A stretch of 64,000 nucleotides of DNA, from contig JAFCCW010000001.1 in assembly GCA_017609985.1 (NCBI GenBank), positions 96,001 to 160,000 on the forward strand, read 5' to 3'. Below the pieces are notes generated by a model that ran no database searches, was not told the origin of the DNA, and saw only the letters and a list, made by a program, of their open reading frames with translations. Made by a program: the position numbers and the translations under genes. The stretch comes from Candidatus Iainarchaeum sp. GTDB taxonomy: Archaea > Iainarchaeota > Iainarchaeia > Iainarchaeales > JAFCCW01. Shown one piece after another: positions 37 to 32,549 of this stretch. The stretch's first letter is position 1. Every line of letters begins with the position of its first letter.

Positions 37-55
37 ACCTGCAACAAAGATATTT

Positions 56-327
56 GTGGGCTAGGTTGGGCCGTCAGCGGTGGCTTGTAACCGGAAATCC
101 GCTTTATGCCGGAACCGAAGCAGATGGAAAGAGCTTCAAATCGCGAAAAAGCCGCTTTTGCAGCGTCGAACTCCTGTCCTTAAAGAGGCCATGTTAGAGC
201 AAATCCGCCAGGGTCGGAAGACAGCAACGGTAACTCTGATAAGGACTGCTTTAGGGGTCGCGGGAGGGAGCTGTAAAAACGTTCACTTTTTTACGAAATT
301 TGGGGTGCGATTCATCTGTGTGCCCAT
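56..327 (+). ncRNA. ffs: Signal recognition particle (7S) RNA, archaeal type, apparently lacking helix 6
   Basis: Terminal helix GTGGGC/GCCCAT; Alu domain with UGUAA and complementary loops AGCGG/CCGCT; long helix 5; helix 8 motif CCGCCAGG-GTC-GGAA-GAC-AGCAACGG at 205-230. Confidence 0.93.
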
Positions 328-398
328 TTATCCTCAAAAAAAAGAAAGAATTAAATACAAGAAAAATATTATCTTTTTGGTTCAAAAAAGGTGTTTAA

Positions 399-710: not shown

Positions 711-1046
711 TTATTTGATTTCTGATTTTACTTCCCGCATCAAAGAATTAATTGTTTTCTGCAAAGCAGTTATAAGTTTCCAGTCCCAACTAGACGCAAC
801 AAAATTTAAGCCAGGAACAGAAGCACGGAGTTTTATAGAATGCTTTCTTCTAAGACCGTCAGAAGAATGCTGTTTGAAATGAACCACAAAAAGCAATTCA
901 TTGCTCAAAATAGTTGAAATTTTATCATAAGTTGATTCGATAGTACTGTTAATTTTTGCAGCATCGATTTCATCAACATCCGGAGCACCAACAATTTGAA
1001 TATTCCTTTTTGCAGAAGAAAAATAACTCGCAACAGGATTACTCAT
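711..1046 (-). CDS. Stand-alone HPF/RaiA-like ribosome-associated (hibernation) protein
   Basis: Pattern VHFKQH..G.RRKHSIKLR..PG..FVAS..DW.L..AL resembles the archaeal HPF-like domain; ATGA overlap with the tpiA stop. Confidence 0.6.
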   Translation of the reverse strand: MSNPVASYFSSAKRNIQIVGAPDVDEIDAAKINSTIESTYDKISTILSNELLFVVHFKQHSSDGLRRKHSIKLRASVPGLNFVASSWDWKLITALQKTINSLMREVKSEIK

Positions 1047-1723
1047 TTTAACCCCCTTGCCAAATCAAGAATTGAGTCTTTTGGATTCTCGCTTTTAACA
1101 ATACCGGAAGCAACAAATACCCCCACAGTTCCGAGTTCCAAAGCTTTTTTAACATCAGCCATGTCCTTAATTCCCGCGCCAGTCACAACATCAATGGAAG
1201 AATTTACAAGCTTTACTTTTTCAACAGTCTCAGTTATTAGCTCAGGCTTTGCATTTGAAACACTCACCTCCCCCCCAATGAGTTCAGGAGGCTCAACAGC
1301 AATAAGGCCAGGAGCAGGATTCATGGAAGCTAGTTCAATAGCTCTGTCAACTGACTCAGCACAAACCATTACCTCTAACCCAGCTTCCTTTGCGCGCTGA
1401 ATTGCGGATTGAACAAAAGAATTGTCCTTTTTGTTTTCAGCATGATTAAGAACAGCCCCCACAGCACCAGCAAACTTAACTGCCTCTGGAAGAATATGGC
1501 CCGTGTTGGAACCAAAAGAAACTGGATCAAGATGCTGTGAAAAAACAGGAATAGAAACTTTTTCAGCAACCATCCGCAAATCAATTGCTTGGGGCACAAC
1601 TGCAATAGACACGTTCTCTGAAATAGAAACAGATTCTGCAGAAAGTGCAAGCGCAAGCGCGTTCTCAGAAGTAGCCTGTTCATAAGTTTTGAAATTGATG
1701 AAAATAACAGGCTTATTGAGCAT
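1043..1723 (-). CDS. tpiA: Triosephosphate isomerase, archaeal type
   Basis: INFKTY, NHAE, AVEPPELIG, GAGI and VASG motifs; 226 aa. Confidence 0.96.
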   Translation of the reverse strand: MLNKPVIFINFKTYEQATSENALALALSAESVSISENVSIAVVPQAIDLRMVAEKVSIPVFSQHLDPVSFGSNTGHILPEAVKFAGAVGAVLNHAENKKDNSFVQSAIQRAKEAGLEVMVCAESVDRAIELASMNPAPGLIAVEPPELIGGEVSVSNAKPELITETVEKVKLVNSSIDVVTGAGIKDMADVKKALELGTVGVFVASGIVKSENPKDSILDLARGLK

Positions 1724-1835
1724 AAATAATATAAAACACCAAAAAGAATAAAATTAGAATAATGCAAACAAAACATCTGCGAAAAAGGGTTCCAAAAGTA
1801 CTATAATAATTTACCAAACAGCATTATTTTAGAAA

Positions 1836-3701
1836 ATGAAGAAAAAAAAAACAAACCTGAAAGAACTCATTAACGAAGTAAAGAGCAAAAATTCAGATGC
1901 AAACATCGCCCTTATCAAAAAAGCATTTGAAAAAGCCACTGCCAAAAACACTAGCAAAATAAGAAATATGGAAGAACTCAAAACACATCTTTTGAACAGC
2001 GCAATCACTATAGCAAAATTAAACCTGGGGGAAGAAGCAGTAAACGCAACACTGTTGCATGAAACAGGAAACACGCAAGAAGAAATTGAAAAAATCAAAC
2101 ACGATTTTGGAAAAGCCACAGCACAACTTGTTGAAGAGATAACAAAGATAACAGAAATTGAAGAAAACAACAGGGGAAAAATTTCAAATGAAGTTCTGAG
2201 CAGGGTAATACTTTCAACAGGCAAAGACATCAGATCAGTATTTATAAAACTTGCAACAACTCAGCAAAATATTGAAGATATTGACCTCTGGAAAGAAAAA
2301 GGAGAAAAAATGGCAGAAATCACTGCCCAGGCGTATGTTCCGATTTGTCACAAACTTGGATTAAAAGAAATGGAGTGGAACATGCGAGACCTTGCATTCA
2401 AAAAGCTTGAGCCGGAAGAATACGCAAAAATAAAAAAAAACATAGGTCAAAAAAGAGAAAAAAGAGAAAGAGAAGTTAATGAACTTGTTGAAGAACTAAC
2501 AAACGAACTTCAAAAACAAAAAATGAAAGTATATGTGTATGGGCGACCAAAAAGTTTTTACAGCATCTACAAAAAACTAAAAACCGGAAAACAAATTGAA
2601 GAAATTCATGATTTGCTAGCAGCAAGAATAATTTGCGACTCAATCAAAGAATGTTACGAAGCACTCTCCGTAGTGCATTCCTTATTCAAGCCTGTTTCAA
2701 AAGACTTCAAGGATTATATTGCAAGCCCAAAGAAAAACAATTACAAAAGCATTCACACCGCAATGGAATGGAGAAAAAAAATTGTAGAAATACAAATAAG
2801 AACCTGGGAAATGCACGCAGAAGCAGAACTAGGAATCGCAGCGCACTGGAAATACAAGGAATTTCAAAAAGACCAGTATTTTGATCAAAAACTTGGCTGG
2901 GCAAGACAGTTAGCAGACTGGCAACAAAAAGAAAAAAATGCAATTGATGTAATGAAAAGTTTAAAGTTAGATATTGGAGAAAACAAGATATTTGTTCTGA
3001 CCCCACAAAAAAAAGTTGTTGTTCTTCCGGAAGGTTCAACCCCAATAGACTTTGCATTCGCAATCCATTCAGAAATAGGTTACAAATGCAAATTAGCAAA
3101 AGTTAACGGAAAAATAGTGCCATTAAACCAGATTCTGGAAAATGCAGACACAATAGAAATAATTACATCCCCCAAAGACCAGGCAAAAAGCCAATGGATA
3201 AGTTTTGTGAGGCTAGACAAAGCAATAACAAAACTCAAACAAAAACTTGGCATAAAAGAAAAACAAGAAAAGAAAAAACACAAAATCGTTGGGAAAAAAA
3301 GCAGAAAAAACATTAGAATTGCAAACTGCTGCAAACCAATTCCCGGAGACCCAATACAAGGATACAAAACAACAAAAAGAAAAATAAGCGTGCACAAAAA
3401 AGAATGCAAAAACCTGAGCACGATTGAAACAGGAAAATTAGTAGAAATAAGCTGGGAAGGCCTTGGAGGCGAATTCCAAGCAGAGATATATATCCGCGCA
3501 GAAGACAGACCAGAAATTCTCAGAAATCTTTTAGATGAAACAGCAAAAGAAAAAATAAAAATATACTCAACCAGCGCAAAAGCCAAAGCAAACGCGATTG
3601 AATGCATATTCAAGATAGGGATAAAAAACGCAAACCAGCTTGAAAAACTAATTAACAGACTTGAAAAGGTACCTGGCACCCACAGCGTGAAAAGAAGATA
3701 A
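1836..3701 (+). CDS. relA: Long RelA/SpoT homologue (pseudo-HD, SYNTH, TGS, ZFD, ACT); probable (p)ppGpp synthetase
   Basis: GRPKSFYSIYKK, DLLAARII, DYIASPKKNNYKSIHT, EIQIRT..MH..AELGIAAHWKYKE; TGS TPIDFAFAIHSEIG; ZFD ANCCKPIPGD..VHKKEC; C-terminal ACT. Confidence 0.93.
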   Translation: MKKKKTNLKELINEVKSKNSDANIALIKKAFEKATAKNTSKIRNMEELKTHLLNSAITIAKLNLGEEAVNATLLHETGNTQEEIEKIKHDFGKATAQLVEEITKITEIEENNRGKISNEVLSRVILSTGKDIRSVFIKLATTQQNIEDIDLWKEKGEKMAEITAQAYVPICHKLGLKEMEWNMRDLAFKKLEPEEYAKIKKNIGQKREKREREVNELVEELTNELQKQKMKVYVYGRPKSFYSIYKKLKTGKQIEEIHDLLAARIICDSIKECYEALSVVHSLFKPVSKDFKDYIASPKKNNYKSIHTAMEWRKKIVEIQIRTWEMHAEAELGIAAHWKYKEFQKDQYFDQKLGWARQLADWQQKEKNAIDVMKSLKLDIGENKIFVLTPQKKVVVLPEGSTPIDFAFAIHSEIGYKCKLAKVNGKIVPLNQILENADTIEIITSPKDQAKSQWISFVRLDKAITKLKQKLGIKEKQEKKKHKIVGKKSRKNIRIANCCKPIPGDPIQGYKTTKRKISVHKKECKNLSTIETGKLVEISWEGLGGEFQAEIYIRAEDRPEILRNLLDETAKEKIKIYSTSAKAKANAIECIFKIGIKNANQLEKLINRLEKVPGTHSVKRR

Positions 3702-3747
3702 AAGAAAATTATATTAATAAGAAAAACAGTAATAAAGATGTGATAAA

Positions 3748-4488
3748 ATGAATAGGGTAAAAACAGGAATAAAAGGATTAGACACATTGGTCGAAGGCGG
3801 GTTTCCAAAAGGCAGAAGTGTGCTTGTAAGCGGAGGTTGCGGAACAGGAAAAACAATTCTGTCAATGCAATATATTTACAGCGGAGCCAAAGACTTTGGA
3901 GAACCAGGAGTGTATGTGACACTTGATGAAAGACCAGATTTGTTAAGAGAAGATTGTTTAAGATTTGGATGGGATTTAGCCAAGCTTGAAGACAAAAACC
4001 TGATGCAGATAATAGACGGAAGCATTGCAAAACTTGGAATTCCATCAGAAGAAGAATTCTCACTCCCAGTAACCGGATTTGATATAGATAAGCTATTGTT
4101 GGAAACAATGAGAATAATAAAAAGAATTGGGGCAAAGCGTGTTGTGATAGACTCTATTCCCGCACTCGGATTCAATTTCAAAGACGAAAACGAAGTGAGA
4201 AAAGCAATACTCAAACTTAGCTATATGTTAATGAGAAGCGGAGTAACATCCATAATGACAAGTGAAGTAGCAGAAGGAGACCAAAGATATGGCAAGTATG
4301 GAGTAGAAGAATATGTGGTTGACGGAGTAATTGTGTTACACTACATGGGGGTTGGAACCCAAAGCAATAGAACGCTTCATGTCAGGAAAATGAGAGCAAC
4401 AAACCACAGCGAAGACCTTCACCCACTCAAGATAGGAAAAAAAGGAATAGAAATAAGCAAAATAGAAGACGAATACAACGATGTTTAA
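3748..4488 (+). CDS. Single-domain KaiC/RAD55-like ATPase
   Basis: RVKTGIKGLD, Walker A GGCGTGKT, RVVIDS, EEYVVDGVIVL, KMRATNH. Confidence 0.92.
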   Translation: MNRVKTGIKGLDTLVEGGFPKGRSVLVSGGCGTGKTILSMQYIYSGAKDFGEPGVYVTLDERPDLLREDCLRFGWDLAKLEDKNLMQIIDGSIAKLGIPSEEEFSLPVTGFDIDKLLLETMRIIKRIGAKRVVIDSIPALGFNFKDENEVRKAILKLSYMLMRSGVTSIMTSEVAEGDQRYGKYGVEEYVVDGVIVLHYMGVGTQSNRTLHVRKMRATNHSEDLHPLKIGKKGIEISKIEDEYNDV

Positions 4489-6104
4489 ATTCCTGCTTCC
4501 TTGATTCTTTCAATACATTTTTCTTTCCCCAGCGCAAAAACAAGCGTGCCAATCTTTGGACCGCGTTCTTTACCCACTAAAATAAGATAAAGCGCCTTAA
4601 AAAGATTTCCTGGGGAAACACCAGCAGACTTAGCAGTTTCAAAAACAGCAGTCTGAATCAAATCAGGAGAATCAAGAGGTTCAATTTTCTTAGAAAGCTC
4701 TGTAAAAAGAGAAATAATTTCAGAATCAACTCCAAGCAATAGCTTTTTGTCAAACTCTTCCAAAAAACCAAGTTTGAATTCAGGAGGAGCATATTTTTCA
4801 ACCCAAGTTTTAGCAAAACCAAGCGTTTCCAAAAACAATTCTTTTTCATAACCAGAAAGTTTTTTTGAAATATACTTACTTTCAATAAGAATTTTCTCCA
4901 AACTCTCAAAATCGTTCACAAAATCAACAAGTTGAGCAAGCTGAATCGCAAAACTGTAAGAAAGTTTTACTGGCATTTTTTTGGGAAGTTTTGAGATAGC
5001 AGAAAATTCAAAATCAAGTTTAATTTTTTCAGAAAGCTTGTCAGTTTGCGCAGATTCCAAACCATAAAAAATCCGTTCCGCTCGCTCAAACCTACCCATG
5101 AGCAATACAAAAGAGTTGCCAGAAAGATCAAAATCAATAACTTTATTCGGACGATAATTAAAATTCAAAAACCGAAATGCTTCAGGAGGCGCAACTTCAA
5201 CCCAGTCAGACAAAGTAGTAACGTTTCCAACAGAGCCAGCCATTTTCCTGCCCCCAATCTGAATAAATTCAGTTGGAAGCTGATATGGAGGCGGAGTTCC
5301 AAAAACTTCCCGAATCATTGCGTGCCCAACATCAACACTGCTTCCTTTTGAAAAATGATCCTTTCCCCCGGATTCAAAATCAACCTTGTGCAAAAGCCAG
5401 TGCGCAACCCAATGAACACGCCAATGAAGTTTTCCATTTCCATCAAACGGAGATTTTTTTCCATTGTGCCCGCAAGCACTGCAAGAGTACTCAACTTCTT
5501 TTCCGTCCCAAGAAAGAGCATCAGTAAAATAAATCTTCCCGCAAGAATCACAAAAAACCTGAACTGGGAGGAAAGAAGATTTTTTGTCAGCCCCAGCCAC
5601 TCTATTCCAAACTTCAACGATTTTTTCAGACTTGTCAAGAGATTCAGAGATAAGAGAATTAAACTTTCCAGATTTATAAGTTTGAAAAGCAGAAACAATA
5701 TTCAGATCAACACCAAATTTTTCAATTACAGAAACAACATCTGAAACAAAAGCATCAGCCCAGGAATTAAATCCCTTAATTGGAGATGGCGCCAACGCAC
5801 AAGGAACCCCAAGAAAATTTTTTTCATCAGATTTCTTTATCCCAAGAGGAGGGGGAATTTTTTTAACCGCATCAAAATCATCAATGATAAAATTTTGAGA
5901 CACCTTAACCCCCTTATCCTCAAGAGCGCGCTTGACCGAGTAAGGAGTGAAAATTTCAGGCCTTGAGTTTCCAATATGAAAAAAACCAGACGGTGTCCAC
6001 ATACCTTGACAAACATAATTCTTTTTGTTACGCTTCAACACTTCTGAAGCCGCAGACTCAGCCCAACTGGAAGCATCAGAATTTGATTTATTTTTTCTGC
6101 CCAT
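4485..6104 (-). CDS. lysS: Lysyl-tRNA synthetase, class I
   Basis: TPSGFFHIGN, Zn CxxC pairs, GKLHWRVHW, ESGGKDH, KMAGSVGN, GKERGPKIG. Confidence 0.95.
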   Translation of the reverse strand: MGRKNKSNSDASSWAESAASEVLKRNKKNYVCQGMWTPSGFFHIGNSRPEIFTPYSVKRALEDKGVKVSQNFIIDDFDAVKKIPPPLGIKKSDEKNFLGVPCALAPSPIKGFNSWADAFVSDVVSVIEKFGVDLNIVSAFQTYKSGKFNSLISESLDKSEKIVEVWNRVAGADKKSSFLPVQVFCDSCGKIYFTDALSWDGKEVEYSCSACGHNGKKSPFDGNGKLHWRVHWVAHWLLHKVDFESGGKDHFSKGSSVDVGHAMIREVFGTPPPYQLPTEFIQIGGRKMAGSVGNVTTLSDWVEVAPPEAFRFLNFNYRPNKVIDFDLSGNSFVLLMGRFERAERIFYGLESAQTDKLSEKIKLDFEFSAISKLPKKMPVKLSYSFAIQLAQLVDFVNDFESLEKILIESKYISKKLSGYEKELFLETLGFAKTWVEKYAPPEFKLGFLEEFDKKLLLGVDSEIISLFTELSKKIEPLDSPDLIQTAVFETAKSAGVSPGNLFKALYLILVGKERGPKIGTLVFALGKEKCIERIKEAGI

Positions 6105-6244: not shown

Positions 6245-6544
6245 ATGCCAGCAAAGAAAAAGAAAACAACAAGAAAAAAAACAGCGACAAAGAAAAAAAC
6301 AACAAAAAAGAAAACCACACGAAAAAAAGCAACAGCAAGAAAAACAGTTAAAAGAAAAACCACACGAAAAAAACCAGCAGCAAGAAAAAAAAAGGTTAAG
6401 AGAAAAACAATAAAAAAAAGAAGACCTGCAAAAAAGAAAACCACACGAAAAAAAACAACAAAGAAAAAAAGCATTAGAAGCAGGGTAAAAAAAGCGGTTC
6501 ACAAAGTTAAAAAGAGAGTAATAAAAAGGAAGAAGAAAAAATAA
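6245..6544 (+). CDS. Histone H1/Hc2-like highly basic repeat protein
   Basis: Strong GGAGGT SD; about 44 Lys and 14 Arg in 99 aa with no acidic residues; KTTRKK repeats; T-rich terminator follows. Confidence 0.8.
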   Translation: MPAKKKKTTRKKTATKKKTTKKKTTRKKATARKTVKRKTTRKKPAARKKKVKRKTIKKRRPAKKKTTRKKTTKKKSIRSRVKKAVHKVKKRVIKRKKKK

Positions 6545-16351: not shown

Positions 16352-16405
16352 GCAGTTTTTTTTCAAACAGCAAGCTTTTAATGCAATTGCAGGCAAGAAT
16401 CTTGC

Positions 16406-17614
16406 ATGGCAGAACATCCCACACTAAAGATTAAAGGAAGCAAGAGCCAGTCTCTAACAGGCAAGCGCATTGTTTTAGGAGTCACTGGAAGCATTGCAGC
16501 AGTCAAATGCGTTGAGCTAGCCCGTGAACTGATAAGGCACGGGGCAGAAGTCTTGCCGGTCCTGAGCAAAGAAGCAAGAAGGATAATTCACCCGAACTCA
16601 ATGCACTATGCTTGTGGCAGAGAGCCAATAACAAAATTGAGCGGAGCAATAGAGCACGTACGAGAATGCGGGGTGGGCGGAATGGCAGATTTGCTATTGA
16701 TTGCTCCAGCCACGGCAAACACGGTTGGAAAGATTGTTCAAGGAATAGATGACACGCCAGTAACCACATTTGCAACAACCGCTCTTGGAAGAAAAATGAA
16801 GCTTGTTCTTGTTCCCGCAATGCATAGCTCAATGTATGAAAGCCCTGCAGTGCAAAGAAATTTAGAACAGGCAGGGAAAGACACAATAATTATTGTGAAT
16901 CCCAAAAAAGAAGAAAACAAGGCAAAGTTTCCGGAAATCGAAGACATTGTAATAGAATGCGAGCGAGCGCTTGGAAACGGAAAATTCGCTGGAAAAAAAA
17001 TTGTTGTTTCCTCGGGAGCAACACTGGAAGAAATTGACGATGTGCGAGTTTTGACAAACAAATCGTCTGGAAAAACAGGGCAGGAAATAGCAAAAGAATT
17101 CTATCGTAGAGGCGCGGAAGTAACAATAGTTCACAACAGCGGAGCACTGGTTTCAGGAATTGGGGCTCGAAAGGTTGAGACTGCGGAGCAAATGGAAAAC
17201 GCATTGTTGGAAGAATGCAAAAAAGCAGATATCTTTGTTTCTGTTGCGGCAATGGGTGATTTTGGAGTAAAGAAGGAAAAAGGAAAAATAAAGAGCGAAG
17301 AAGAGAAAACTCTGACTCTCAAACCAAGAAGCAAAACAATTGCAAAGATTAGGGAGAAGTTTCCTGAATTGTTTGTGGTTGGGTTTAAGGCAGAGTCTGT
17401 TGGGGGAAAAGAGCTTGAAAGCCGCGCACACAAATTCTTGGACAAAAACAATCTTCAGGCAGTCTGCGCAAACAACATCTCCAAACACAAAATAGGGGGG
17501 CAAGAGAACGAGGTCTTGCTGATTTCAAAAAACAAGCTTGCGAAGGCAAAGGGTTTAAAAGAAAAAATCTCACGTAATATAGTTGATTTTATAGAAGATG
17601 TTTATTTTGGCTAA
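16406..17614 (+). CDS. coaBC: Phosphopantothenoylcysteine decarboxylase/ligase
   Basis: GVTGSIAA, APATAN, PAMH, IDDVRVLTNKSSGKTG, VGFKAE. Confidence 0.96.
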   Translation: MAEHPTLKIKGSKSQSLTGKRIVLGVTGSIAAVKCVELARELIRHGAEVLPVLSKEARRIIHPNSMHYACGREPITKLSGAIEHVRECGVGGMADLLLIAPATANTVGKIVQGIDDTPVTTFATTALGRKMKLVLVPAMHSSMYESPAVQRNLEQAGKDTIIIVNPKKEENKAKFPEIEDIVIECERALGNGKFAGKKIVVSSGATLEEIDDVRVLTNKSSGKTGQEIAKEFYRRGAEVTIVHNSGALVSGIGARKVETAEQMENALLEECKKADIFVSVAAMGDFGVKKEKGKIKSEEEKTLTLKPRSKTIAKIREKFPELFVVGFKAESVGGKELESRAHKFLDKNNLQAVCANNISKHKIGGQENEVLLISKNKLAKAKGLKEKISRNIVDFIEDVYFG

Positions 17615-17828
17615 AAGGCACAATGCAGTGAAAAACCAAAAAGTTGGCGCACGCAAGCGGCACGGGTTGTCTAATGTGCCTGAAGATATTCGCAGATTTT
17701 ATATGCAACACGTTGGCCCGGAGTCTGGGCGAGTAACGCGCTGGCTTCAGCTTACAATTAAGGAAGGGAAAACCCCTGCGCAGGTGATGGAAATAATGCA
17801 AAAAGAAATACACAAAGGAAAATACTGA
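17598..17828 (+). CDS. Hypothetical basic orphan protein
   Basis: Fills the gap between coaBC and the oxidoreductase. Confidence 0.5.
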   Translation: MFILAKRHNAVKNQKVGARKRHGLSNVPEDIRRFYMQHVGPESGRVTRWLQLTIKEGKTPAQVMEIMQKEIHKGKY

Positions 17829-17838
17829 ACTGATTTTT

Positions 17839-18717
17839 ATGAATAAAAAAATTGCAGTAGTCGGCGCAGGTCCAGCTGGTCTTCACATGGCTTTCCTGCT
17901 TTCAAACAATGGCTATTTAGCGGAGGTTTTCGAACGAGAGGAGAAACCAGGCGGAATGCTTCAGTATGCTTTGCCAAGATTTAGGTTTCCGCGCGAGCCG
18001 ATTGAAAAAAAAGCAGCTGATTTGGAAAAACAGGGAGTAAAATTTCATTACTCGACTTCTGTTGGAAAAGATATTTCCCTTGAACAGCTTGACCGCCAGT
18101 TTGATGCAGTAATCCTTGCCTGTGGAGAATGGAAACCTCGCTTGCTGGGTTGCCCGGGGGAAAATTTGCCTGGCGCGGAGCAATGGCTTCCGTTTCTCAG
18201 AAAATTCAATTCCGGCAAGGCAGAAAGCCTTGAAGGAAAGAAAACAGTTGTAATTGGTGGGGGAGACACTGCAATGGACTGTGCAATTGCTGCCTCCAAA
18301 CTAGGTGCTGAAACAATCCTTGCCTACAGGCGAAGCAGGGAAGAAGCTCCGGCGCAAGAAAAAGAGATTCAAGCAGTGGAAAAAGCAGGTGTTGATTTCA
18401 AGTTCAGACTTGCCCCAAAAGAATTTATAGGAAAAAAAGGCGCTGAAAAAATAATTTTTGAAAAAACAACTGGCCTTGGGCGGGATTTGGTTGGAACAAG
18501 AGAGCTAGTTGAAGTGCCTGCTGATTTTGTTGTTGTTGCTGTGGGGCAAAAAATTGACGAAACAATTTTTGAAAATTCCAAATGGGATTCTTTGAGTGTG
18601 CTTCCGGAAAAATTCATCCTTGTGGGGGATATCGTCAATAAAAAGAAAAATATTGCTTCTGCGATTCAGTCTGCAAACCTTGCCTTTGAAAAAACAAAAC
18701 AAATTATAGACAATTGA
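17839..18717 (+). CDS. FAD/NAD(P)H oxidoreductase, GltD/NfnB-like, lacking the N-terminal Fe-S domain
   Basis: GAGPAG, GGMLQYALPRFR, VIGGGDTAMDC, YRRS..EAPA..EI. Confidence 0.85.
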   Translation: MNKKIAVVGAGPAGLHMAFLLSNNGYLAEVFEREEKPGGMLQYALPRFRFPREPIEKKAADLEKQGVKFHYSTSVGKDISLEQLDRQFDAVILACGEWKPRLLGCPGENLPGAEQWLPFLRKFNSGKAESLEGKKTVVIGGGDTAMDCAIAASKLGAETILAYRRSREEAPAQEKEIQAVEKAGVDFKFRLAPKEFIGKKGAEKIIFEKTTGLGRDLVGTRELVEVPADFVVVAVGQKIDETIFENSKWDSLSVLPEKFILVGDIVNKKKNIASAIQSANLAFEKTKQIIDN

Positions 18718-18776
18718 CGTATTTTGCAATGACAAACAGCGAAAGCTTTTTATATTCTTGATATCTTAATTGTAGC

Positions 18777-19964
18777 GTGTTTCAAATGACTAATGCCTTT
18801 GAAAAATTTTACAAAAAAAGCATTTCTGGAAGGCGAGCAGTGATTAAAAAATCAGCAAATCTTTCCCCTTCCGAACTAAAGCTTTTTGAAAATGCGCTTG
18901 GTTCACAGAACGCAGACCAGATAATCGAAAACGTTGTCGGCACATATGAGCTTCCTCTTGGCATAGCAACAAACTTTGTTGTCAACGGAAGACAGGTTGT
19001 TGTTCCAATGGCTGTTGAAGAACCAAGTGTTGTGGCTGCTGCTTCAAATGCAGCAAAACTCTGCAAGGCAACAGGCGGTTTTAAAACAAAAGCAAGCAAG
19101 CCGGAAATGATTGGGCAGATACAGCTTGTCAAAGTTAAAAATCCTGCTTCTGCTTTAAAAAAAATCATCAAGGAAAAAAAGAATCTTGTCAAAATTGCCA
19201 ATTCTCGCGACCCATTGCTGGTTAAATATGGGGGCGGAGCAAGAGATATTGAAGCAAAAACAATTTTTGCGGGCAGAAAAAAAATGGTTATTATTTATCT
19301 AACAGTTGACGTGCGGGATGCAATGGGTGCAAACGCAGTTAACACAATGTGCGAAGCAATTGCGCCGGAGCTGGAAAGAATGTCTGGGGGGATAGCGCGC
19401 CTTAGAATAATTTCCAATTTAGCAGTTAAGCGAACAGCAAAAGCAAAAGCTGTCTGGAAGAAAAAAGATTTAGAGAAAAGTGCTAAAGGCACTGGAATGA
19501 CTGGGCAAGAAATTGTTGACGCAATAATTGAATCTTACGAACTCGCAGAAAATGATATTTACAGATGCGCAACCCACAACAAAGGAATAATGAACGGAGT
19601 TGATGCTATTGCAGTTGCATGTGGACAGGACTGGAGAGCAATCGAAGCCGGAGCCCATGCTTTTGCTGCAAAAACAGGGCAATACAAATCCCTTACAAAA
19701 TACTCCAAAGACAAGCAGGGAAATCTTGTTGGAGAAATAGAAATTCCAGTTGCAGTCGGAATTGTTGGGGGCGCAATAAAAGCACAGCCTCTTGCCCAAC
19801 TCTGTGTTAAGCTTACTGGGGTAAAGACTGCTCAAGAGCTTGGGGAAATAATTGCTGCAGTTGGCCTAGCACAAAATTTTGCTGCACTGCGCGCACTTTC
19901 AACAGAGGGAATTCAACGAGGGCACATGAGACTGCATGCAAGAATGCAGGGTGAGAAAAAATGA
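18777..19964 (+). CDS. mvaA: HMG-CoA reductase, class II
   Basis: ENVVG, EEPSVVAAAS, DAMGAN, THNKGIMNG, EGIQRGHMRLH. Confidence 0.95.
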   Translation: MFQMTNAFEKFYKKSISGRRAVIKKSANLSPSELKLFENALGSQNADQIIENVVGTYELPLGIATNFVVNGRQVVVPMAVEEPSVVAAASNAAKLCKATGGFKTKASKPEMIGQIQLVKVKNPASALKKIIKEKKNLVKIANSRDPLLVKYGGGARDIEAKTIFAGRKKMVIIYLTVDVRDAMGANAVNTMCEAIAPELERMSGGIARLRIISNLAVKRTAKAKAVWKKKDLEKSAKGTGMTGQEIVDAIIESYELAENDIYRCATHNKGIMNGVDAIAVACGQDWRAIEAGAHAFAAKTGQYKSLTKYSKDKQGNLVGEIEIPVAVGIVGGAIKAQPLAQLCVKLTGVKTAQELGEIIAAVGLAQNFAALRALSTEGIQRGHMRLHARMQGEKK

Positions 19965-21007
19965 AAGCAGGAATAGTTGGCTATGGCGCAGAAGTGCCTA
20001 TTCTAAGAATTAAAACAGAGGAAATTGCAAGAGCCTGGAAAAAAGACGGCGTGAAAATCGCAACAGGTCTTGGAGTAAAAGAAAAAGCTGTCGCAAGCTT
20101 TGATGAAGACTCCTGCACTCTCGCAGTCGGAGCAGCAAGAAAAGCAGTTCTTGACTTTGGATTGAATGCACAAAAAATTGGAGCAGTTTACGTTGGCAGT
20201 GAATCACACCCCTATGCTGTGAAACCAACAGCATCAATTGTCTCTGACGCAATTGAAGCTGGTCCAGAACTAATGGCTGCTGATTTGGAATTTGCCTGCA
20301 AGGCTGGCACAGCAGGAGTTCAAATGAATCTTGGGTTTGTAGAAGCAAGAATGATTGAATATGGTTTAGCAATCGGAACAGACACAGCACAGGGAAGACC
20401 AAATGATGCTCTTGAATTCACTGCCGGAAGCGGAGCTGGAGCAATAATTGTTGGAGACAAACGAAACGAAATAATCGCAACCTGCGAAGATACTTATTCA
20501 TTCACAACAGACACTCCTGACTTTTGGAGAAGACCAAAAGAAGACTTTCCAATGCACGCGGGAAGATTTACTGGAGAACCAGCTTACTTCAAGCACGTGC
20601 TGAGTGCTTCAAGAGGAATTCTGGAAAAAACAAGTTACAAAACAAAAGACTTTGACCACGTAGTCTTTCATCAGCCAAATGCAAAATTTCCTCTGAAAGC
20701 AGGCAAGATACTTGGATTTGAACGAGAAAAATTTGAAGCAGGACTAATGTGCCCAACAATAGGAAATACTTATTCAGGCGCAACAATGGTTGGGTTGTGT
20801 GCAGTTCTTGACGTTGCAAAGCCAGGAGAGAGAATACTTGCAGTGTCTTACGGCAGCGGAGCAGGAAGCGATGCATTCATTTTTAAGACAACAAAAAACA
20901 TTGAAAAGAAAAGAGGAAAAATAGCAGTAAAGGAAATGATTAAAGAAAAGCAATACATTGATTATGCAGAATACATAAAACACAGGAAAAAGCTGAAGAG
21001 TTTGTAG
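19961..21007 (+). CDS. mvaS: HMG-CoA synthase, archaeal type
   Basis: GSESHPYAVKP, EFACKAGT, DTPDFWRR, HQPN, GNTYSG, SYGSGAGSD. Confidence 0.96.
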   Translation: MKAGIVGYGAEVPILRIKTEEIARAWKKDGVKIATGLGVKEKAVASFDEDSCTLAVGAARKAVLDFGLNAQKIGAVYVGSESHPYAVKPTASIVSDAIEAGPELMAADLEFACKAGTAGVQMNLGFVEARMIEYGLAIGTDTAQGRPNDALEFTAGSGAGAIIVGDKRNEIIATCEDTYSFTTDTPDFWRRPKEDFPMHAGRFTGEPAYFKHVLSASRGILEKTSYKTKDFDHVVFHQPNAKFPLKAGKILGFEREKFEAGLMCPTIGNTYSGATMVGLCAVLDVAKPGERILAVSYGSGAGSDAFIFKTTKNIEKKRGKIAVKEMIKEKQYIDYAEYIKHRKKLKSL

Positions 21008-21015
21008 GTGAAAAA

Positions 21016-22182
21016 ATGAGAAGTGTTAGCATTATCGGAGCCGGGCTGACAACATTCGGCGAGCACTGGGAAAAGAGCTTCAGGGAACTCATAGCAGAAG
21101 CAGGGATACAGGCAATCCAGGATGCTGGGGTTTCAGGCGGTCAGATAGAGGCAATTTATGGCGGGGCAATGGCTTCCGGAAGGTTTATTGGTCAGGAGCA
21201 CATCGGGGCACTGATAGCAGACCAGCTTGGGCTAAATCCGATTCCCTCAGTTCGTCTTGAAGCAGCCTGTGCTTCTGGAGGCGTGGCTTTGAGAAATGCT
21301 TATCTGGCAGTTGCAAGCGGAATGTACGACATTGTTGCAGTCGGCGGAGTAGAAAAAATGACAGAGGTTTCCACTGAAGACGCTGGATTTGCTCTTGGCG
21401 GAGCCGGCGACCAGGAAACAGAGTTGTTCATGGGAGCAACCTTTCCAGCATTATACGCTTTGCTGGCACGCGCACACATGGAAGAATTTGGAACAACAGA
21501 AGAACAAATGGCGGCAGTAGCTGTAAAAAATCACAAGAACGCAGTGAACAATCCATTTGCCCAGTACAGGCGAGAAATAACAATCGAAGACGTAATGAAA
21601 TCAGGATATGTTGCTTCTCCACTCAAACTTCTAGACTGCTCTCCAATAACTGACGGAGCAGCAGCAGTAATTATTGCCTCGAGCGATGTAGCAAAAAAAG
21701 TCTGTGAGAACCCGGTGGAAATACTGGCTTCAGAGCAAGCATCAGATTCACTTGCTCTATCAAAAAGAAAATCTTTAACCGAGCTTGACGCAACCAAAGT
21801 AGCAGTAAAACAAGCCTATGAAAGAACAGGGCTGAAAGCAAAAGACATTGACTTTGCAGAAGTTCACGATTGCTTTACAATTAACGAAATTCTTGCAACC
21901 GAAGACCTTGGTTTTTTCAAGAAGGGGGAAGGAGGCAAGGCAGTAGAAAAAGGAAAAACTGCTTTAGGTGGAGAAATTCCAGTAAACACTTCTGGGGGTC
22001 TGAAAGCAAAAGGCCACCCAGTCGGAGCAACCGGGGTTGCCCAGGCAATTGAAGCCTACTGGCAGCTTCGCGGAGCAGCAGACAAGAGGCAGGTAAAAGA
22101 TGCAGAATACGGATTAACCCACAATGTTGGCGGAAGCGGAGCCACAGCAGTAGTAAACATTTACAGGAGGCTGGAAAAATGA
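21016..22182 (+). CDS. Acetoacetyl-CoA thiolase (archaeal)
   Basis: EAACASGG, GGVEKMT, EVHDCFT, GLKAKGHPVGATG, HNVGG. Confidence 0.95.
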   Translation: MRSVSIIGAGLTTFGEHWEKSFRELIAEAGIQAIQDAGVSGGQIEAIYGGAMASGRFIGQEHIGALIADQLGLNPIPSVRLEAACASGGVALRNAYLAVASGMYDIVAVGGVEKMTEVSTEDAGFALGGAGDQETELFMGATFPALYALLARAHMEEFGTTEEQMAAVAVKNHKNAVNNPFAQYRREITIEDVMKSGYVASPLKLLDCSPITDGAAAVIIASSDVAKKVCENPVEILASEQASDSLALSKRKSLTELDATKVAVKQAYERTGLKAKDIDFAEVHDCFTINEILATEDLGFFKKGEGGKAVEKGKTALGGEIPVNTSGGLKAKGHPVGATGVAQAIEAYWQLRGAADKRQVKDAEYGLTHNVGGSGATAVVNIYRRLEK

Positions 22183-22583
22183 CTACTGGTTTTCCTCCAT
22201 TGCTCTGGAGAAGGTTTCCGGAAAGATACACTCTTGCAGGAAACAAGTGCGAAACCTGCGGAACATCATACTTTCCAGCACGCAAAGTCTGTCCAAACTG
22301 CAGGAGACGAGGAAAACTTGTTGACGAGTCAATGCCGCGCAAGGGAAAAATAGTTTCATGGACACAATGCTTTGTTGGGCCAACAGGATTTGAACACGAA
22401 ACACCATACTTTGTTGCAATCATTGAACTCGAAAACAAGGTAAGACTTCTAGCCCAGCTTGTTGACAGCGATGAAAAGAAAGTTAAAACAGGAGCCTGCG
22501 TGGAAAAAGTCTTCAGAAAAATAAACGACGCAGACAAATCCGGGCCAATAGCCTACGGCTACAAGTTTAAAATAGTTGGATGA
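22179..22583 (+). CDS. DUF35 Zn-ribbon/OB-fold scaffold of the thiolase-HMGS complex
   Basis: CETCG..FPARKVCPNC, YGYKF; coupled to the thiolase. Confidence 0.93.
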   Translation: MTTGFPPLLWRRFPERYTLAGNKCETCGTSYFPARKVCPNCRRRGKLVDESMPRKGKIVSWTQCFVGPTGFEHETPYFVAIIELENKVRLLAQLVDSDEKKVKTGACVEKVFRKINDADKSGPIAYGYKFKIVG

Positions 22584-22606
22584 ACCCAATCTATTAAGGT
22601 GGTTTA

Positions 22607-23539
22607 ATGGGAGAAGGCATTGGATTTGGCAAGACAATTCTTTTCGGAGACCATTTTGTAGTGTATGGATTGCCGGGCATAGCAGCGGGTTTGAATAATT
22701 CAACCACTGCAAAGATTGAACCATCTGACAAATTCGAGTTTGAGGACAACCGTCCTCAGACACCAGGCTACAAGGAAAAGAAGAAATCCGAGATTCAGAG
22801 ACAGCTGGATTCGCTTATTGAACAGTTTGACTTAAACATTGAAAAAACTCCTTTGAAGATAACTCTCTCCGGAAACCTTGTCTGTGCCTCAGGAATGGGA
22901 GCAAGCGCTGCTCTTGCGGCAAGCATTGCGCGTGCCCTCAGCAAAGAGTTTGGAAAAGAGCTGGATGATGAGCAGATAAACAAGATAGCTTATCTTGCAG
23001 AAGAAGCTGGGAGCGGAACTCCGTCCGGTATTGACAACACTTGTGCAGTGTATGGGGGATTTATTACTTTTGAGAAAAATCTTGAAGGTGGAGAAAACAA
23101 AATAGAGACTTTGCAGGTTGAAAATCCTGTTGAAATAGTTCTGGCAAATTCAGGCATAACACAGGAAACAAAAAAAGTAGTTGACGATGTCAGAAAAGAA
23201 AAAGAAATCCGTTCAAAAGAGTTTGAAGAAATATTTGAAAAATATATGGAAACTTACAAACAAGCATTGCCTGCAATCAGGGAAGGGAACTGGTCTGCGT
23301 TAGGAAAGCTGATGTCCAGAAACCACTCTTTCTTGCAAAAAATGACTGTTTCCTGCAAAGAACTTGACGAAATGCAGGCAACAGCTCTTGAAGCAGGTGC
23401 TTTTGGCGCAAAACTCACTGGAACCGGAAGAGGGGGGCTGCTTCTTGCACTAACCCCTGGCAAGGAATTGCAGGAAAAAGTTGCAAAAGCTCTTGAAGAC
23501 CAAGGCTTCTCTTGCCTGCGCTCAAAGATAGGTGTGTAA
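22607..23539 (+). CDS. mvk: Mevalonate kinase
   Basis: GKTILFGDHFVVYG, GMGASAA, PSGIDN, AKLTGTGRGG. Confidence 0.93.
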   Translation: MGEGIGFGKTILFGDHFVVYGLPGIAAGLNNSTTAKIEPSDKFEFEDNRPQTPGYKEKKKSEIQRQLDSLIEQFDLNIEKTPLKITLSGNLVCASGMGASAALAASIARALSKEFGKELDDEQINKIAYLAEEAGSGTPSGIDNTCAVYGGFITFEKNLEGGENKIETLQVENPVEIVLANSGITQETKKVVDDVRKEKEIRSKEFEEIFEKYMETYKQALPAIREGNWSALGKLMSRNHSFLQKMTVSCKELDEMQATALEAGAFGAKLTGTGRGGLLLALTPGKELQEKVAKALEDQGFSCLRSKIGV

Positions 23540-24091
23540 ATGAAGCTCGTAGTTGCAATAACCGGCGCAAGCGGAGTAAGCTATTCTGTTTCCCTGCTCA
23601 AAGCATTGAAAAAAGCAGGAGTGGAGACACACTTGATTGTCTCCGAGTGGGCTGAAAAGCTGTTTGAAGAAGAAACAGATATTTCAGTTGCGGAAGTGAA
23701 AGCTCTTGCTTCGAAAACATATGGCTATAGGGAAATGGATGCAGCGATTTCCTCATCCAGCTTTTTAGTGGACGGAATGATTGTGATTCCAGCAAGCGTG
23801 AAAACTGTTTCAGACATTGCAAATGCAAGCACTGGCAATCTGATTTCACGCTCAGCAGACAACATGCTGAAAACAGGAAAAAAGCTCGTGGTTTGCGTGA
23901 GAGAAACTCCGCTGAGCGCTCCGTGCCTCAAGAATATGCACAATCTTGCGCTCTATGGGGCGATTGTAATGCCTTTGTCTCCCGGCTTCTATCACAAGCC
24001 AAAAACTATTAAGGATTTAGAAGCTTTTATTACTGGGAAAGTGCTGGATGCATTTGAAATAAAGAATGAAAACTTCAAGAGGTGGGGTTAA
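23540..24091 (+). CDS. ubiX: Flavin prenyltransferase UbiX
   Basis: AITGASG, LISRSAD, RETPL, PGFYHKP. Confidence 0.93.
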   Translation: MKLVVAITGASGVSYSVSLLKALKKAGVETHLIVSEWAEKLFEEETDISVAEVKALASKTYGYREMDAAISSSSFLVDGMIVIPASVKTVSDIANASTGNLISRSADNMLKTGKKLVVCVRETPLSAPCLKNMHNLALYGAIVMPLSPGFYHKPKTIKDLEAFITGKVLDAFEIKNENFKRWG

Positions 24092-25392
24092 TGGGATTTA
24101 GAGAATTTCTGGAAAAAATAGACAAAGAAACTGTTTCAAAGCCTGTTTCAAAAAAGCTAGAGGCAAGCGCAATCCTTGACCAGTTAGGAGAAAAAGCTGT
24201 ACTTTTTGAAGACATTAAGGAAAGCGATTTCAGGGTTGGCGGAAACCTGTTCACAAGCAAGCAGAGAACAGCAGACTATCTTGGCTGCAAGGTAAGCGAG
24301 CTAATTCCCACTCTCACAAATGCAATTGACAACCCCTCAAAGCCGGAAGAGGTTTCAGGGGGAGAATGCCAGGAAGTCGAGCTGGATTCAGTTGACTTGG
24401 ACAAGCTTCCGATTCTCTTTCACACAGAGGCAGACGGGGGAAACTATGTTTCTTCAGGAGTTGTTGTTTCCTCTTCCCCCGCGCACGGGCAAAACCTTGA
24501 CTTTCACAGGTGCATGCAGATTTCCAAAAACAAGTTTTCAGTCCGAATCGTAAGCACTAGAAACTTTGATGAATTCCTGCAAAAGCAGGGGGAAATGCCT
24601 ATTGCTGTTTGTGTCGGCAACGGAGCAAATACATTGATTGCAGCAGCTATCTCTGTTGAGATTGGAAAGAACGAGGAAGAGATTGCAAACACGCTCTCAC
24701 CCCTGCAGGTTACAAAGGCAAAAACCTCTGACCTGCTTGTTCCAGCTGATTCAGAATTCGTGCTGGAGGGGATAATCCGGCTTGCAGACAAGTCAGACGA
24801 GGGGCCGTTTGTTGACTTAACCGAGACAGTTGATGTAGTAAGGCAGGAACCGGTTTTTGAAGTCAAGAAAATAACGCACCGCAAGGACGCAATCTGGCAG
24901 GCACTGCTTCCAGGCAAGCTCGAGCACAAGCTCTTGATGGGAATGCCGCGCGAGCCCACGATGTTCAGGGAAGTGAATTCTGCTGGAGTCAAGTGCCTTG
25001 ATGTGAACGTGAATCCCGGGGGCTGTTCTTGGCTGCATGGGCTTGTGAAAATTGACAAGCAAAGCGAGGAAGACGGGAAAAAGGCAATTGAAGGAGCTTT
25101 CAAGGGGCACAAGTCATGCAAGCACATTTTCGTGGTTGACAAAGACATTGACATCTACAATCCATTGGAAGTAGAGTGGGCAATGGCTACCCGTTTCCAG
25201 GCATCAGACGACTTTGTAATGAAGGAAAAAGAGCCAGGCAGTTCCCTTGATCCAAGTGCGGAGTCAAAAACAAAGATGACAAGCAAATGCGGCTTTGATT
25301 GCACTGCCAAGCTTGAAGCAAAGGGAAAGAATTTTGGAAAAGCTGTTTTTCCAAAAGTTGAGTTGGAGAAGTTTTTGGGGGGAGAGCAATGA
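24091..25392 (+). CDS. ubiD: UbiD-family prFMN decarboxylase (anhydromevalonate phosphate decarboxylase by context)
   Basis: EFVLEG, EGPFVDLT, GGCSWLH, VVDKDIDI..VEWAMATRFQ, SSLDPS. Confidence 0.92.
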   Translation: MGFREFLEKIDKETVSKPVSKKLEASAILDQLGEKAVLFEDIKESDFRVGGNLFTSKQRTADYLGCKVSELIPTLTNAIDNPSKPEEVSGGECQEVELDSVDLDKLPILFHTEADGGNYVSSGVVVSSSPAHGQNLDFHRCMQISKNKFSVRIVSTRNFDEFLQKQGEMPIAVCVGNGANTLIAAAISVEIGKNEEEIANTLSPLQVTKAKTSDLLVPADSEFVLEGIIRLADKSDEGPFVDLTETVDVVRQEPVFEVKKITHRKDAIWQALLPGKLEHKLLMGMPREPTMFREVNSAGVKCLDVNVNPGGCSWLHGLVKIDKQSEEDGKKAIEGAFKGHKSCKHIFVVDKDIDIYNPLEVEWAMATRFQASDDFVMKEKEPGSSLDPSAESKTKMTSKCGFDCTAKLEAKGKNFGKAVFPKVELEKFLGGEQ

Positions 25393-26561
25393 AACTGTCA
25401 AAAGAAGAGCAGGAAATGATTGAAGGAAAGCAGGGAAATGCAGTAAAGAAGAGCATGGAAATTTTAACTGCTCTTGGAGAAATTTTCGGAGCAGAAGAAC
25501 TTGTGGATGTAAGCAGTGTCCAGATTGCCGGCGTCAGCTACCACAATCTTGGAGAAGCTGGATTGGAGTTTCTTGAAGAAATGGCAAAGGACGGCAAGAC
25601 CAAAGTTCTTACAACACTAAACCCTGCAGGAATGGACTTGGAGAACTGGAAGGCTCTTGGAATTTCTCCAGAGTTTGCAAAACAGCAAGAACTTGTAATA
25701 GAAGCATTTGCAAAGATGGGGGTAATCACTACCTGCACTTGCACCCCATATTTCATTGGAAACACGCCACATTATGGAGAACATATTGCTTGGGCTGAGT
25801 CAAGCGCGGTATGCTATGCAAACTCTGTTCTTGGATTGAAAACAAACAGGGAAGGAGGGCCAAGCGCTCTTGCTTCCGCTCTCACAGGAAAGACTCCAAA
25901 GTTCGGCTTGCATCTTGAAGAAAACAGACAGGCAAAGGTTTTAGTTGAATTAAATGCAGAGCTGAAGAGCGTGCCGGACTTTGGCGCACTGGGCTGGGCA
26001 GTTGGAAACAAAATCGGAAACAAGATTCCCCTGATTACTGGTGTGAAAAAAGCAAGCATTGAAGAACTCAAGAGCCTGTGCGCTAGCATTGCAACCTATG
26101 GCGGAACAGCAATGTTTCACATGGAGGGAATTACTCCAAGCAAGACAACTGTTCCGGAAGAAAAGCTTGAGATTGAAGAAGCAGACCTTGAAGAGGCAAG
26201 AAAAACACTCAACGACGAGATTGAAATTGATTTAATTGCAATCGGCTGCCCGCACTGTTCTCTTGGAGAAATCCAGAAAATTGCCTCTCTTCTTGAAGGA
26301 AAAAAAGTCAAAAAAGAAATGTGGATTTGTTTAGCAAGGCCAATCAAAAAGATTGCAGACCAGATGGGCTATTCAAAGACAATAGAGGGCTCGGGAGCAA
26401 AGTTTGCCTGCGACACCTGCATGGCTGTTGCTCCTTTGAAGGGAAGATTCAAGGGGCTGGCGACTGATTCAGCAAAAGCCTGTTTTTACGGCAGGGGAAA
26501 GAATTCTTTCAAAACCAAATTTATGCCATTGGAAGAGCTTGTAAAGGAGGCGACAGAATGA
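25389..26561 (+). CDS. Aconitase X catalytic subunit (phosphomevalonate dehydratase large subunit)
   Basis: TTLNPAG, TCTCTPY, WAESSA, TNREGG, GCPH, DTC, TDSAK. Confidence 0.93.
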   Translation: MKLSKEEQEMIEGKQGNAVKKSMEILTALGEIFGAEELVDVSSVQIAGVSYHNLGEAGLEFLEEMAKDGKTKVLTTLNPAGMDLENWKALGISPEFAKQQELVIEAFAKMGVITTCTCTPYFIGNTPHYGEHIAWAESSAVCYANSVLGLKTNREGGPSALASALTGKTPKFGLHLEENRQAKVLVELNAELKSVPDFGALGWAVGNKIGNKIPLITGVKKASIEELKSLCASIATYGGTAMFHMEGITPSKTTVPEEKLEIEEADLEEARKTLNDEIEIDLIAIGCPHCSLGEIQKIASLLEGKKVKKEMWICLARPIKKIADQMGYSKTIEGSGAKFACDTCMAVAPLKGRFKGLATDSAKACFYGRGKNSFKTKFMPLEELVKEATE

Positions 26562-31613: not shown

Positions 31614-31644
31614 AATTAAATATTTCTAGTTCCTATTTATTTTC

Positions 31645-32064: not shown

Positions 32065-32071
32065 TCTGGAG

Positions 32072-32512: not shown

Positions 32513-32549
32513 ACAAAACTATTAAATTGCGAAAGACTTTAATGTAATT

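Follow-up and report, generated by a model that had tools for sequence, protein, structure and literature searches.

The window analysed here is a stretch of 64,000 nucleotides from the genome of Candidatus Iainarchaeum sp., a member of the DPANN archaea (contig JAFCCW010000001.1, positions 96,001 to 160,000), and the gene in question lies near its start, on the forward strand, at 1836..3701. It is an intact open reading frame (ORF) with an ATG start, which codes for a protein of 621 amino acids (aa) that belongs to the long RelA/SpoT homologues (RSHs) on the basis of its match to the NCBIfam model TIGR00691 spoT_relA (513.9 bits, over the cut-off of 499.2). The same protein scores under the cut-offs of both equivalog models, i.e., NF008124 for RelA (350.4 bits; cut-off 728) and NF008303 for SpoT/Rel (342.1 bits; cut-off 947). 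We refer to this protein and its orthologues as type A, and to a second long RSH that is encoded elsewhere in the same genome as type B.

Architecture and motifs of the type-A protein

Pfam models and alignments resolve the type-A protein into an hS architecture, in which a pseudo-HD domain is followed by the SYNTH, TGS, ZFD and ACT domains, with a short linker between the TGS and the ZFD; the domain and motif matches, with E-values of 1e-15 to 1e-154, are not attributable to chance. The pseudo-hydrolase (1962..2363, aa 43-176) is recovered by the HD_4 model at 72.7 bits, and the alarmone synthetase (2541..2861, aa 236-342) by the RelA_SpoT model at 129.9 bits. In the C-terminal region, the TGS domain (2988..3167, aa 385-444; Pfam TGS, 71.6 bits) leads into a remnant of the helical (AH) domain, shrunk to two short helices, which was delimited by alignments and an AlphaFold2 model (3168..3317, aa 445-494). 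This is followed by the ZFD, or ribosome-intersubunit domain, which the alignment places at 3318..3425 (aa 495-530) with the CCHC ligands C498, C499, H520 and C524, and by a terminal ACT/RRM domain (3468..3695, aa 545-620; Pfam ACT_4, 55.9 bits). The Pfam model RelA_AH_RIS reaches 17.5 bits on this protein, under its cut-off of 23.8. All of these elements lie on the + strand, and together with TIGR00691 they uphold the original prediction of a long RSH with an intact SYNTH domain and with the TGS, ZFD and ACT domains present.

Inspection of the alignments to Rel and RelA chains and to relatives shows that the set of hydrolase residues of bifunctional Rel (H, HD, ED and D...HN) is incomplete in the type-A protein. 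The position of the first histidine is kept as H51, but the LLHD site reads LLH75-E76-T, with HE for HD, and the position of the E-D pair of Rel is occupied by G78-N79. Further, K138-L-A-T141-T-Q-Q144-N145 replaces KLADRLHN, with T141 for the aspartate and Q144 for the histidine, and the protein has IRNM-EELKTH at the position of RxSGEPYxxHP of Rel, with no SGEPY. The degeneration of the hydrolase, as first read from LLHET, KLATTQQN and the missing SGEPY, is therefore confirmed by the comparison with these chains. The synthetase residues R237, K239, D259, R264, Y294, E318 and Q320, on the other hand, are intact.

The specificity motif of the synthetase is D290-F-K-D293 in the alignment (nucleotides 2703-2714, + strand), where E. 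coli RelA and most type-A orthologues have EFDD; the variants across the orthologues comprise EFDD, SFDD, EFHD and EFND. We take the acidic E-x-D-D, in place of R-x-K-D, to be the motif of the RelA subfamily. The earlier observation of DFKD hence stands as far as its presence is concerned, but the motif appears private to the 621-aa protein: on the available alignments it is a peculiarity of that protein and would give no basis for a substrate preference.

A marked departure from the bacterial long RSHs lies between the TGS and the ZFD. About 88 residues of the AH domain are gone in all type-A sequences compared in the alignment, such that residues 479 to 494 of the type-A protein match residues 554 to 662 of the mycobacterial Rel chain 8fr8_I. 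The distance from the end of the TGS to the Cys-Cys pair of the ZFD has a median of 56 residues in type A (50-68, n=33) as against 144 in bacteria (96-167, n=36) and 146 in E. coli RelA, in agreement with the prediction that this helical linker is mostly deleted. An AlphaFold2 model built on 45 orthologues, with a predicted local distance difference test (pLDDT) score of 85.1 and a predicted template-modelling (pTM) score of 0.78, retains in this region the helices 452-456 and 461-471, followed by a lysine-rich segment, 477-490, with a pLDDT of <50. The top fold matches of the model are the ribosome-bound RelA (5iqr), full-length SpoT (7qpr) and B. subtilis Rel (6yxa).

The two domains that flank the deletion, the TGS and the ZFD, are the best-conserved ones of type A, with a mean pairwise identity of 55% and 57%, respectively (61% and 57% in the bacterial sequences). 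H411 in the TGS domain aligns with H432 of E. coli RelA, and the ZFD ligands C498, C499, H520 and C524 are invariant in 45/45 type-A sequences. In the available part of a study of B. subtilis Rel (PMC7797070), the TGS histidine (H432 in E. coli, H420 in B. subtilis) is described as stacking on the 3'-CCA terminus of a tRNA; in the same system in vitro, the TGS alone formed no stable complex with tRNA, while the TGS with the helical domain did. The histidine is found in all 35 type-A and all 36 bacterial sequences, as opposed to a single one of 16 type-B sequences. This contrast makes the strongest case at hand that type A may still read a free CCA end and that type B would not.

A second long RSH and the reciprocal decay of the catalytic domains

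A profile search of the genome with the catalytic domains recovered type B, a long RSH of 561 aa encoded on another contig (C8, ~31280-32965; 3281-4963, + strand, in the extracted locus L055). Its HD_4 match scores 132 bits in the genome search and 128.3 bits on the protein, and its SYNTH match ~80 bits. Type B has TGS and ACT domains; the helical domain and the ZFD are missing, as is the histidine of the TGS. The HD_4 search of the genome, which is 86.6% complete, found just these two long RSHs and no small alarmone hydrolase. Thus, the separate hydrolase that had been predicted to accompany the gene does have a candidate in the same genome, but this is a paralogous long RSH rather than a small alarmone hydrolase.

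The catalytic motifs were compared across 35 type-A sequences (the source protein, those of 32 relatives and those of two named metagenome-assembled genomes) and 16 type-B sequences (the source protein and those of 15 relatives), with two partial copies of type B excluded. In type B, the H and HD motifs are present in 16/16 sequences, the ED pair in 15/16 and D...HN in 15/16. In type A, the ED pair is found in none of the 34 readable sequences and the full HD set in none at all. The synthetase presents the mirror image: type A keeps the G-loop arginine, R264, the catalytic glutamate and the glutamine, and ten SYNTH residues (R237, K239, K247, D259, R264, D293, Y294, Y303, E318 and Q320) are invariant in 45/45 type-A sequences. 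In type B, the G-loop arginine, the equivalent of R264 and the glutamine are each conserved in 0/16, and the catalytic glutamate is likewise absent from all 16, being replaced by lysine in 13, arginine in two and serine in one. The mean pairwise identities follow the same division, with 28% for the HD and 50% for the SYNTH domain in type A and 45% and 38%, respectively, in type B (56% and 63% in the bacterial sequences). By these motifs, the two types have decayed reciprocally, type A with a predicted dead HD and an intact SYNTH domain and type B with the opposite.

Type B is encoded 54 nucleotides (nt) downstream of the gene for arginyl-tRNA synthetase (ArgRS) in the source genome, and the gene for leucyl-tRNA synthetase converges on it. 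The ArgRS gene is directly upstream on the same strand at 14/16 type-B loci, where 4-127 nt separate the two, and is displaced by one gene at a 15th. Proteins resembling type B are already present, unnamed, in public sequence sets: about 30 of the best 150 representatives have a length of 520-635 aa and are covered by one unbroken match that extends to residue 510 or beyond in the 561-aa query.

Among characterized systems, E. coli RelA (5iqr, 5kps/5kpv) is close in layout to type A, with a degenerate HD, an intact SYNTH domain, the TGS histidine, the ZFD and the ACT/RRM domain, a second long RSH as its partner for hydrolysis, and the EFDD motif that it has in common with most type-A orthologues. 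Unlike E. coli RelA, type A has lost about 88 helical residues, carries DFKD in the source protein and resides in an archaeal host. Further, E. coli RelA groups with that of Accumulibacter inside the bacterial clade, while type A stands apart; the resemblance between the two is convergent. The Rel proteins of Bacillota and Actinomycetota (6yxa/6htq, 8fr8, and RelSeq, 1vj7) have the same domain order as type A and include its best sequence matches beyond the archaeal clade, among them chain 8fr8_I with 358.9 bits; however, Rel keeps the H..HD..ED..D..HN residues, (p)ppGpp hydrolysis and the full helical domain, whereas type A has lost both these residues and that domain. For type B, a counterpart is the SpoT of Acinetobacter baumannii (7qpr), which we take to be a hydrolase-only long RSH (Hs). 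If so, it would share with type B a working HD, a dead SYNTH domain and a RelA-type partner. Nevertheless, type B differs: it has neither helical domain nor ZFD, its TGS is without the histidine, its gene follows that for ArgRS, and it belongs to an archaeal clade of its own. The 7qpr structure also matches the type-A sequence.

Distribution, ancestry and genomic context

Among 40 genomes of the same order, type A is found in 33, 32 times in full length (31-45% identity) and once as a partial copy, which makes it nearly a core gene of the order. The seven remaining genomes comprise two with a truncated form of 460 aa, two with a weak match to the TGS domain only and three with no match. The 460-aa form (loci L053 and L054, genomes G033 and G002) consists of the SYNTH and TGS domains, with the TGS histidine kept, and has no HD motifs, ZFD or ACT domain. 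Proteins of 360-400 aa from the same order match the SYNTH model only. In a sample of the phylum that includes the source genome, the synthetase domain (PF04607) occurs in 117/151 genomes and in 42/55 of high quality, and its absences cluster in a few families, with matches in three of 17 genomes of family f30 and in none of six of f34. Of the 40 relatives, 17 have type B, and every one of these 17 also carries type A.

To place the two types, a maximum likelihood tree was computed for 86 long RSHs (33 type A, 15 type B and 38 bacterial; LG+G4, quick search), with the bacterial rows covering 13 named phyla and candidate groups and including both E. coli RelA and SpoT. The tree resolves three clades that meet at one node, with SH-aLRT supports of 99 for A, 100 for B and 99 for the bacteria; a site-heterogeneous 40-row tree, computed with posterior mean site frequencies (PMSF, C20), recovers the same clades with 99, 100 and 92. 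A check for an archaeal clade, which had been proposed along with the original prediction, thus returned two of them, A and B, apart from the sampled bacteria. Within both clades, the families f2, f5 and f9 group alike, an agreement that fits vertical descent of A and B, and both paralogues look old and vertically inherited in the order as judged from these trees. The database matches that rank next after the archaeal clade are Rel proteins of Bacillota, with 38-43% identity over ~76% of the query. Should the root lie within the bacteria or beside them, A and B would be each other's nearest relatives, and a single acquisition with later duplication and reciprocal loss would be indicated. This conclusion is insecure, as the trees have no root, the rows of the archaea are long and of unusual composition, and the bacterial rows represent the best 80 matches of one scan.

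The presence of the family in uncultured archaea is already on record, as had been anticipated. The survey of Li et al. (2021, mSystems, PMC8407392), as far as consulted, lists RelA/SpoT for 69.0% of Diapherotrites, 41.7% of Woesearchaeota, 21.3% of Pacearchaeota and 19.0% of Nanoarchaeota; its authors predict acquisition from bacteria. Their statement on RelA/SpoT, in that part of the text, comes with no analysis of domains or motifs and mentions neither reciprocal paralogues nor loss of the helical domain. An earlier census, as far as its accessible sections go, found no long RSH in archaea and noted that model archaea lack them (Atkinson et al. 2011, PMC3153485), and a census of 2020 (PMC7229694) has no rows for Diapherotrites or Woesearchaeota in the part of its table examined. 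In the literature searched, no report of a reciprocal archaeal RSH pair was found, PMC8407392 being the one paper that searches for such a pair turned up. Hence, what is new is the shortened architecture and the reciprocal pair, as opposed to the occurrence of RelA/SpoT in DPANN archaea, at least on the part of that record consulted.

The type-A gene lies in the middle of its contig, at ~97.8 kb of 181.7 kb, with an even GC content along the contig that amounts to 0.36-0.38 around the gene; the genome has 1.16 Mb, with a completeness of 86.6% and a contamination of 2.97%. An archaeal signal recognition particle (SRP) RNA (54..329, + strand; Rfam RF01857, 136.6 bits, gathering score 96.5) is 1.5 kb away, and within 8 kb of the gene are those for a short archaeal-type triosephosphate isomerase (TIM), a KaiC-like ATPase, a class I lysyl-tRNA synthetase (LysRS), three tRNAs, the seryl-tRNA synthetase, aTrm56 and TFE. 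The contig is archaeal on account of the archaeal SRP RNA, class I LysRS, aTrm56 and TFE near the gene.

Directly downstream on the same strand, 46 nt past the type-A gene, begins the gene for the KaiC-like ATPase (3748..4488, + strand), a single-domain protein of 246 aa (Pfam PF06745, 255.8 bits). A KaiC-like gene follows on the same strand at 19/30 type-A loci and lies within two genes at 20/30; the gap is 36-71 nt in 11 loci. The KaiC-like protein is far more conserved than the type-A RSH, with 48-76% identity to its orthologues of 11 other loci and at least 62% in ten of them. The TIM gene (1043..1723, - strand; Pfam) is divergent upstream of type A, an arrangement seen at 18/30 loci and, within two genes, at 19/30. 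By themselves, the conserved arrangements with the KaiC-like, TIM and ArgRS genes would not constitute proof of functional coupling. Upstream of the type-A gene, an A/T-rich, TATA-like box, ctataataa (1801..1809, + strand), was read from the sequence with its centre ~31 nt before the ATG; it is a possible archaeal promoter, which would give a short or absent leader. A second A/T-rich box lies inside the 46-nt spacer between the RSH and KaiC-like genes. A scan for bacterial promoters and terminators around the type-A gene gave a number of sites not above that of shuffled sequence. In a search of sequencing runs by sampled words, no RNA run was listed as containing the locus, and one DNA run had a share of 0.10 of these words.

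Several other features of the window were recorded in passing. A 111-aa ORF just past the TIM gene (711..1046, - strand) has no Pfam match (E<=1) and no meaningful PDB match; a search of the genome with PF02482, made to look for a hibernation factor, gave no hit. Two small lysine-rich proteins of ~100 aa with K/T/A repeats (399-710 and 6245-6544, both + strand), the first of which has no Pfam match, may be chromatin or nucleic-acid binders. A block of higher GC content (~16400-26560, + strand; 0.42-0.46 versus ~0.37) holds co-directional genes for CoaBC, HMG-CoA reductase, an HMG-CoA-synthase-like protein, thiolase, a GHMP kinase, a UbiD-like decarboxylase and aconitase X, and looks like a complete archaeal-type mevalonate operon, which is unusual for a reduced DPANN genome. 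Further downstream, at 57877-60948 (+ strand), a 1023-aa type II/IV secretion ATPase (ArlI/PilB-like) is split by an intein with LAGLIDADG and helix-turn-helix domains.

A putative synthetase and hydrolase pair and its alternatives

From the architecture, motifs, conservation, synteny, distribution and clades described above, we infer the activities, product, ribosomal trigger and downstream targets that follow. It is likely, as far as sequence can tell, that type A is the synthetase half, and type B the hydrolase half, of an archaeal pair resembling RelA and SpoT. Type A would be a monofunctional alarmone synthetase, with the pseudo-HD kept as a scaffold as in RelA, whose SYNTH domain would use ATP to pyrophosphorylate GDP or GTP at the 3'-OH, yielding (p)ppGpp. 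Under amino-acid shortage, deacylated tRNA would enter the A site of the archaeal ribosome; type A would dock by its ZFD and ACT domains at the inter-subunit face, the TGS would cap the free CCA end via H411, and the N-terminal half, once freed, would make (p)ppGpp. This sensing would have to operate through a far shorter connection from the TGS to the ZFD than in bacteria. Type B, with an intact Mn-type HD site and probably off the ribosome, would degrade the alarmone. Activation of type A by the ribosome is favoured because the histidine for the tRNA-CCA end and the cysteines of the ZFD are strictly conserved, and the strong constraint on the TGS histidine, the ZFD and the ACT/RRM domain makes deacylated tRNA, bound to an archaeal ribosome that has stalled, the most likely trigger.

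Downstream of the alarmone, a candidate target is a bacterial-type hypoxanthine-guanine phosphoribosyltransferase encoded in the genome (contig C31:10252-10749; TIGR01203, 195.7 bits, cut-off 150). In bacteria, (p)ppGpp inhibits the corresponding enzyme, HPRT. Searches of the source genome, 86.6% complete, found neither Ppx/GppA nor a bacterial-type guanylate kinase.

We are tentative, and on balance somewhat doubtful, about the wider extrapolation of an order-wide stringent response in these DPANN archaea. Here, the order would have its own pair of long RSHs for making and breaking the alarmone, split independently of the proteobacterial RelA and SpoT and derived perhaps from one very old acquisition rather than a recent import, given that neither archaeal clade lies among the long RSHs sampled from bacteria; in this pair, the synthetase reads deacylated tRNA on the archaeal ribosome via a shortened arm and the hydrolase, without ribosome sensing, is co-transcribed with ArgRS under this reading.

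Several observations weigh against the proposed pair, its mode of sensing or its single origin. The loss of the AH domain would argue against a tRNA-sensing mechanism taken over unchanged from bacteria; with the helical domain gone, sensing may differ from that in bacteria or bypass tRNA altogether. Type B is missing from many genomes that carry type A. The sole HD_4 match in five near-complete ones among these (92-99% complete, in 1-10 contigs) is the pseudo-HD of type A itself, and the absence of a live HD_4 means that the pair model fails there and that another, non-RSH hydrolase would be needed. As for ancestry, a tree that joins A with five Bacillota sequences is only borderline worse (delta lnL 32.5, p-AU 0.0506 in the approximately unbiased test), and the sisterhood of A and B leans on the bacterial clade, the support of which goes down to 92 under the mixture model. 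Finally, up to 2021 there was no archaeon in which (p)ppGpp had been detected, according to Braun et al. (2021, PMC8646023).

As a separate observation, the source genome has seven matches to Nudix proteins, two of which lie in the window at ~27844-28233 (+ strand) and 28427-28741 (- strand); these genes are candidate alternative alarmone hydrolases.

The deletion of about 88 AH residues in all type-A sequences, taken with the failure of the isolated B. subtilis TGS to bind tRNA stably (as described in the accessible part of PMC7797070), raises the alternative that type A is active but blind to the ribosome and tRNA, and is switched by other means, such as a ligand of the ACT domain or the KaiC-like ATPase, whose gene, itself highly conserved, follows on the same strand at 19/30 loci. 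We regard this as unlikely. The CCA-stacking histidine is retained in 35/35 type-A as against 1/16 type-B sequences and the Cys/His ligands of the ZFD in 45/45, a pattern of TGS and ZFD conservation that is hard to explain unless contacts with the tRNA and the ribosome are still in use, and an adjacency conserved within a single order may be mere inherited gene order. A different question concerns the product of an active type A, which might be (p)ppApp, or another acceptor might be pyrophosphorylated. The specificity motif is indeed atypical in the source protein (DFKD) and variable in the orthologues, and the sources consulted, in the parts available, report no (p)ppGpp from archaea and describe small RSH toxins with other products (10.1101/2021.04.30.441581). 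However, the full long-RSH architecture and the SYNTH motifs match those of Rel and RelA proteins that make (p)ppGpp, EFDD is the motif of E. coli RelA, and type A co-occurs with a paralogue whose (p)ppGpp-hydrolase site is canonical, such that a different product appears quite improbable.

Given that one of the two catalytic domains is already dead and that DPANN genomes are under reduction, type A could also be conceived of as a decaying relic or a non-catalytic pseudo-enzyme. This is highly implausible in view of the intact frame, the ten SYNTH residues that are invariant in 45/45 sequences despite an overall identity of 30-45%, and the retention of the gene in 33/40 relatives with genomes of 0.5-1.5 Mb. 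Bacterial contamination or a chimeric assembly, which the typically bacterial nature of the family and the next-best matches to Bacillota Rel would bring to mind and which was named at the outset as something that could overturn the prediction, is hardly credible. It is contradicted by the mid-contig site among the archaeal SRP RNA, TIM, KaiC-like, LysRS, aTrm56 and TFE genes, by a GC content similar to that of the contig, by the recurrence of the same neighbours in 18-19/30 relatives and by the position of the protein inside an all-archaeal clade.

The proposed synthetase and hydrolase pair bears on the question of whether archaea use (p)ppGpp. It supplies two intact, compact, conserved genes of predicted opposite and complementary activity, with which the question can be put directly to the test in E. 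coli and in vitro, although the value of the finding is tempered by the earlier publication of the presence of the gene family in DPANN archaea. If true, the pair would be the second instance, independent of the first, in which a bifunctional Rel has been divided between a synthetase and a hydrolase, and the natural loss of the helical domain in type A would offer a ready-made test of the part that this domain plays in the sensing of tRNA on the ribosome.

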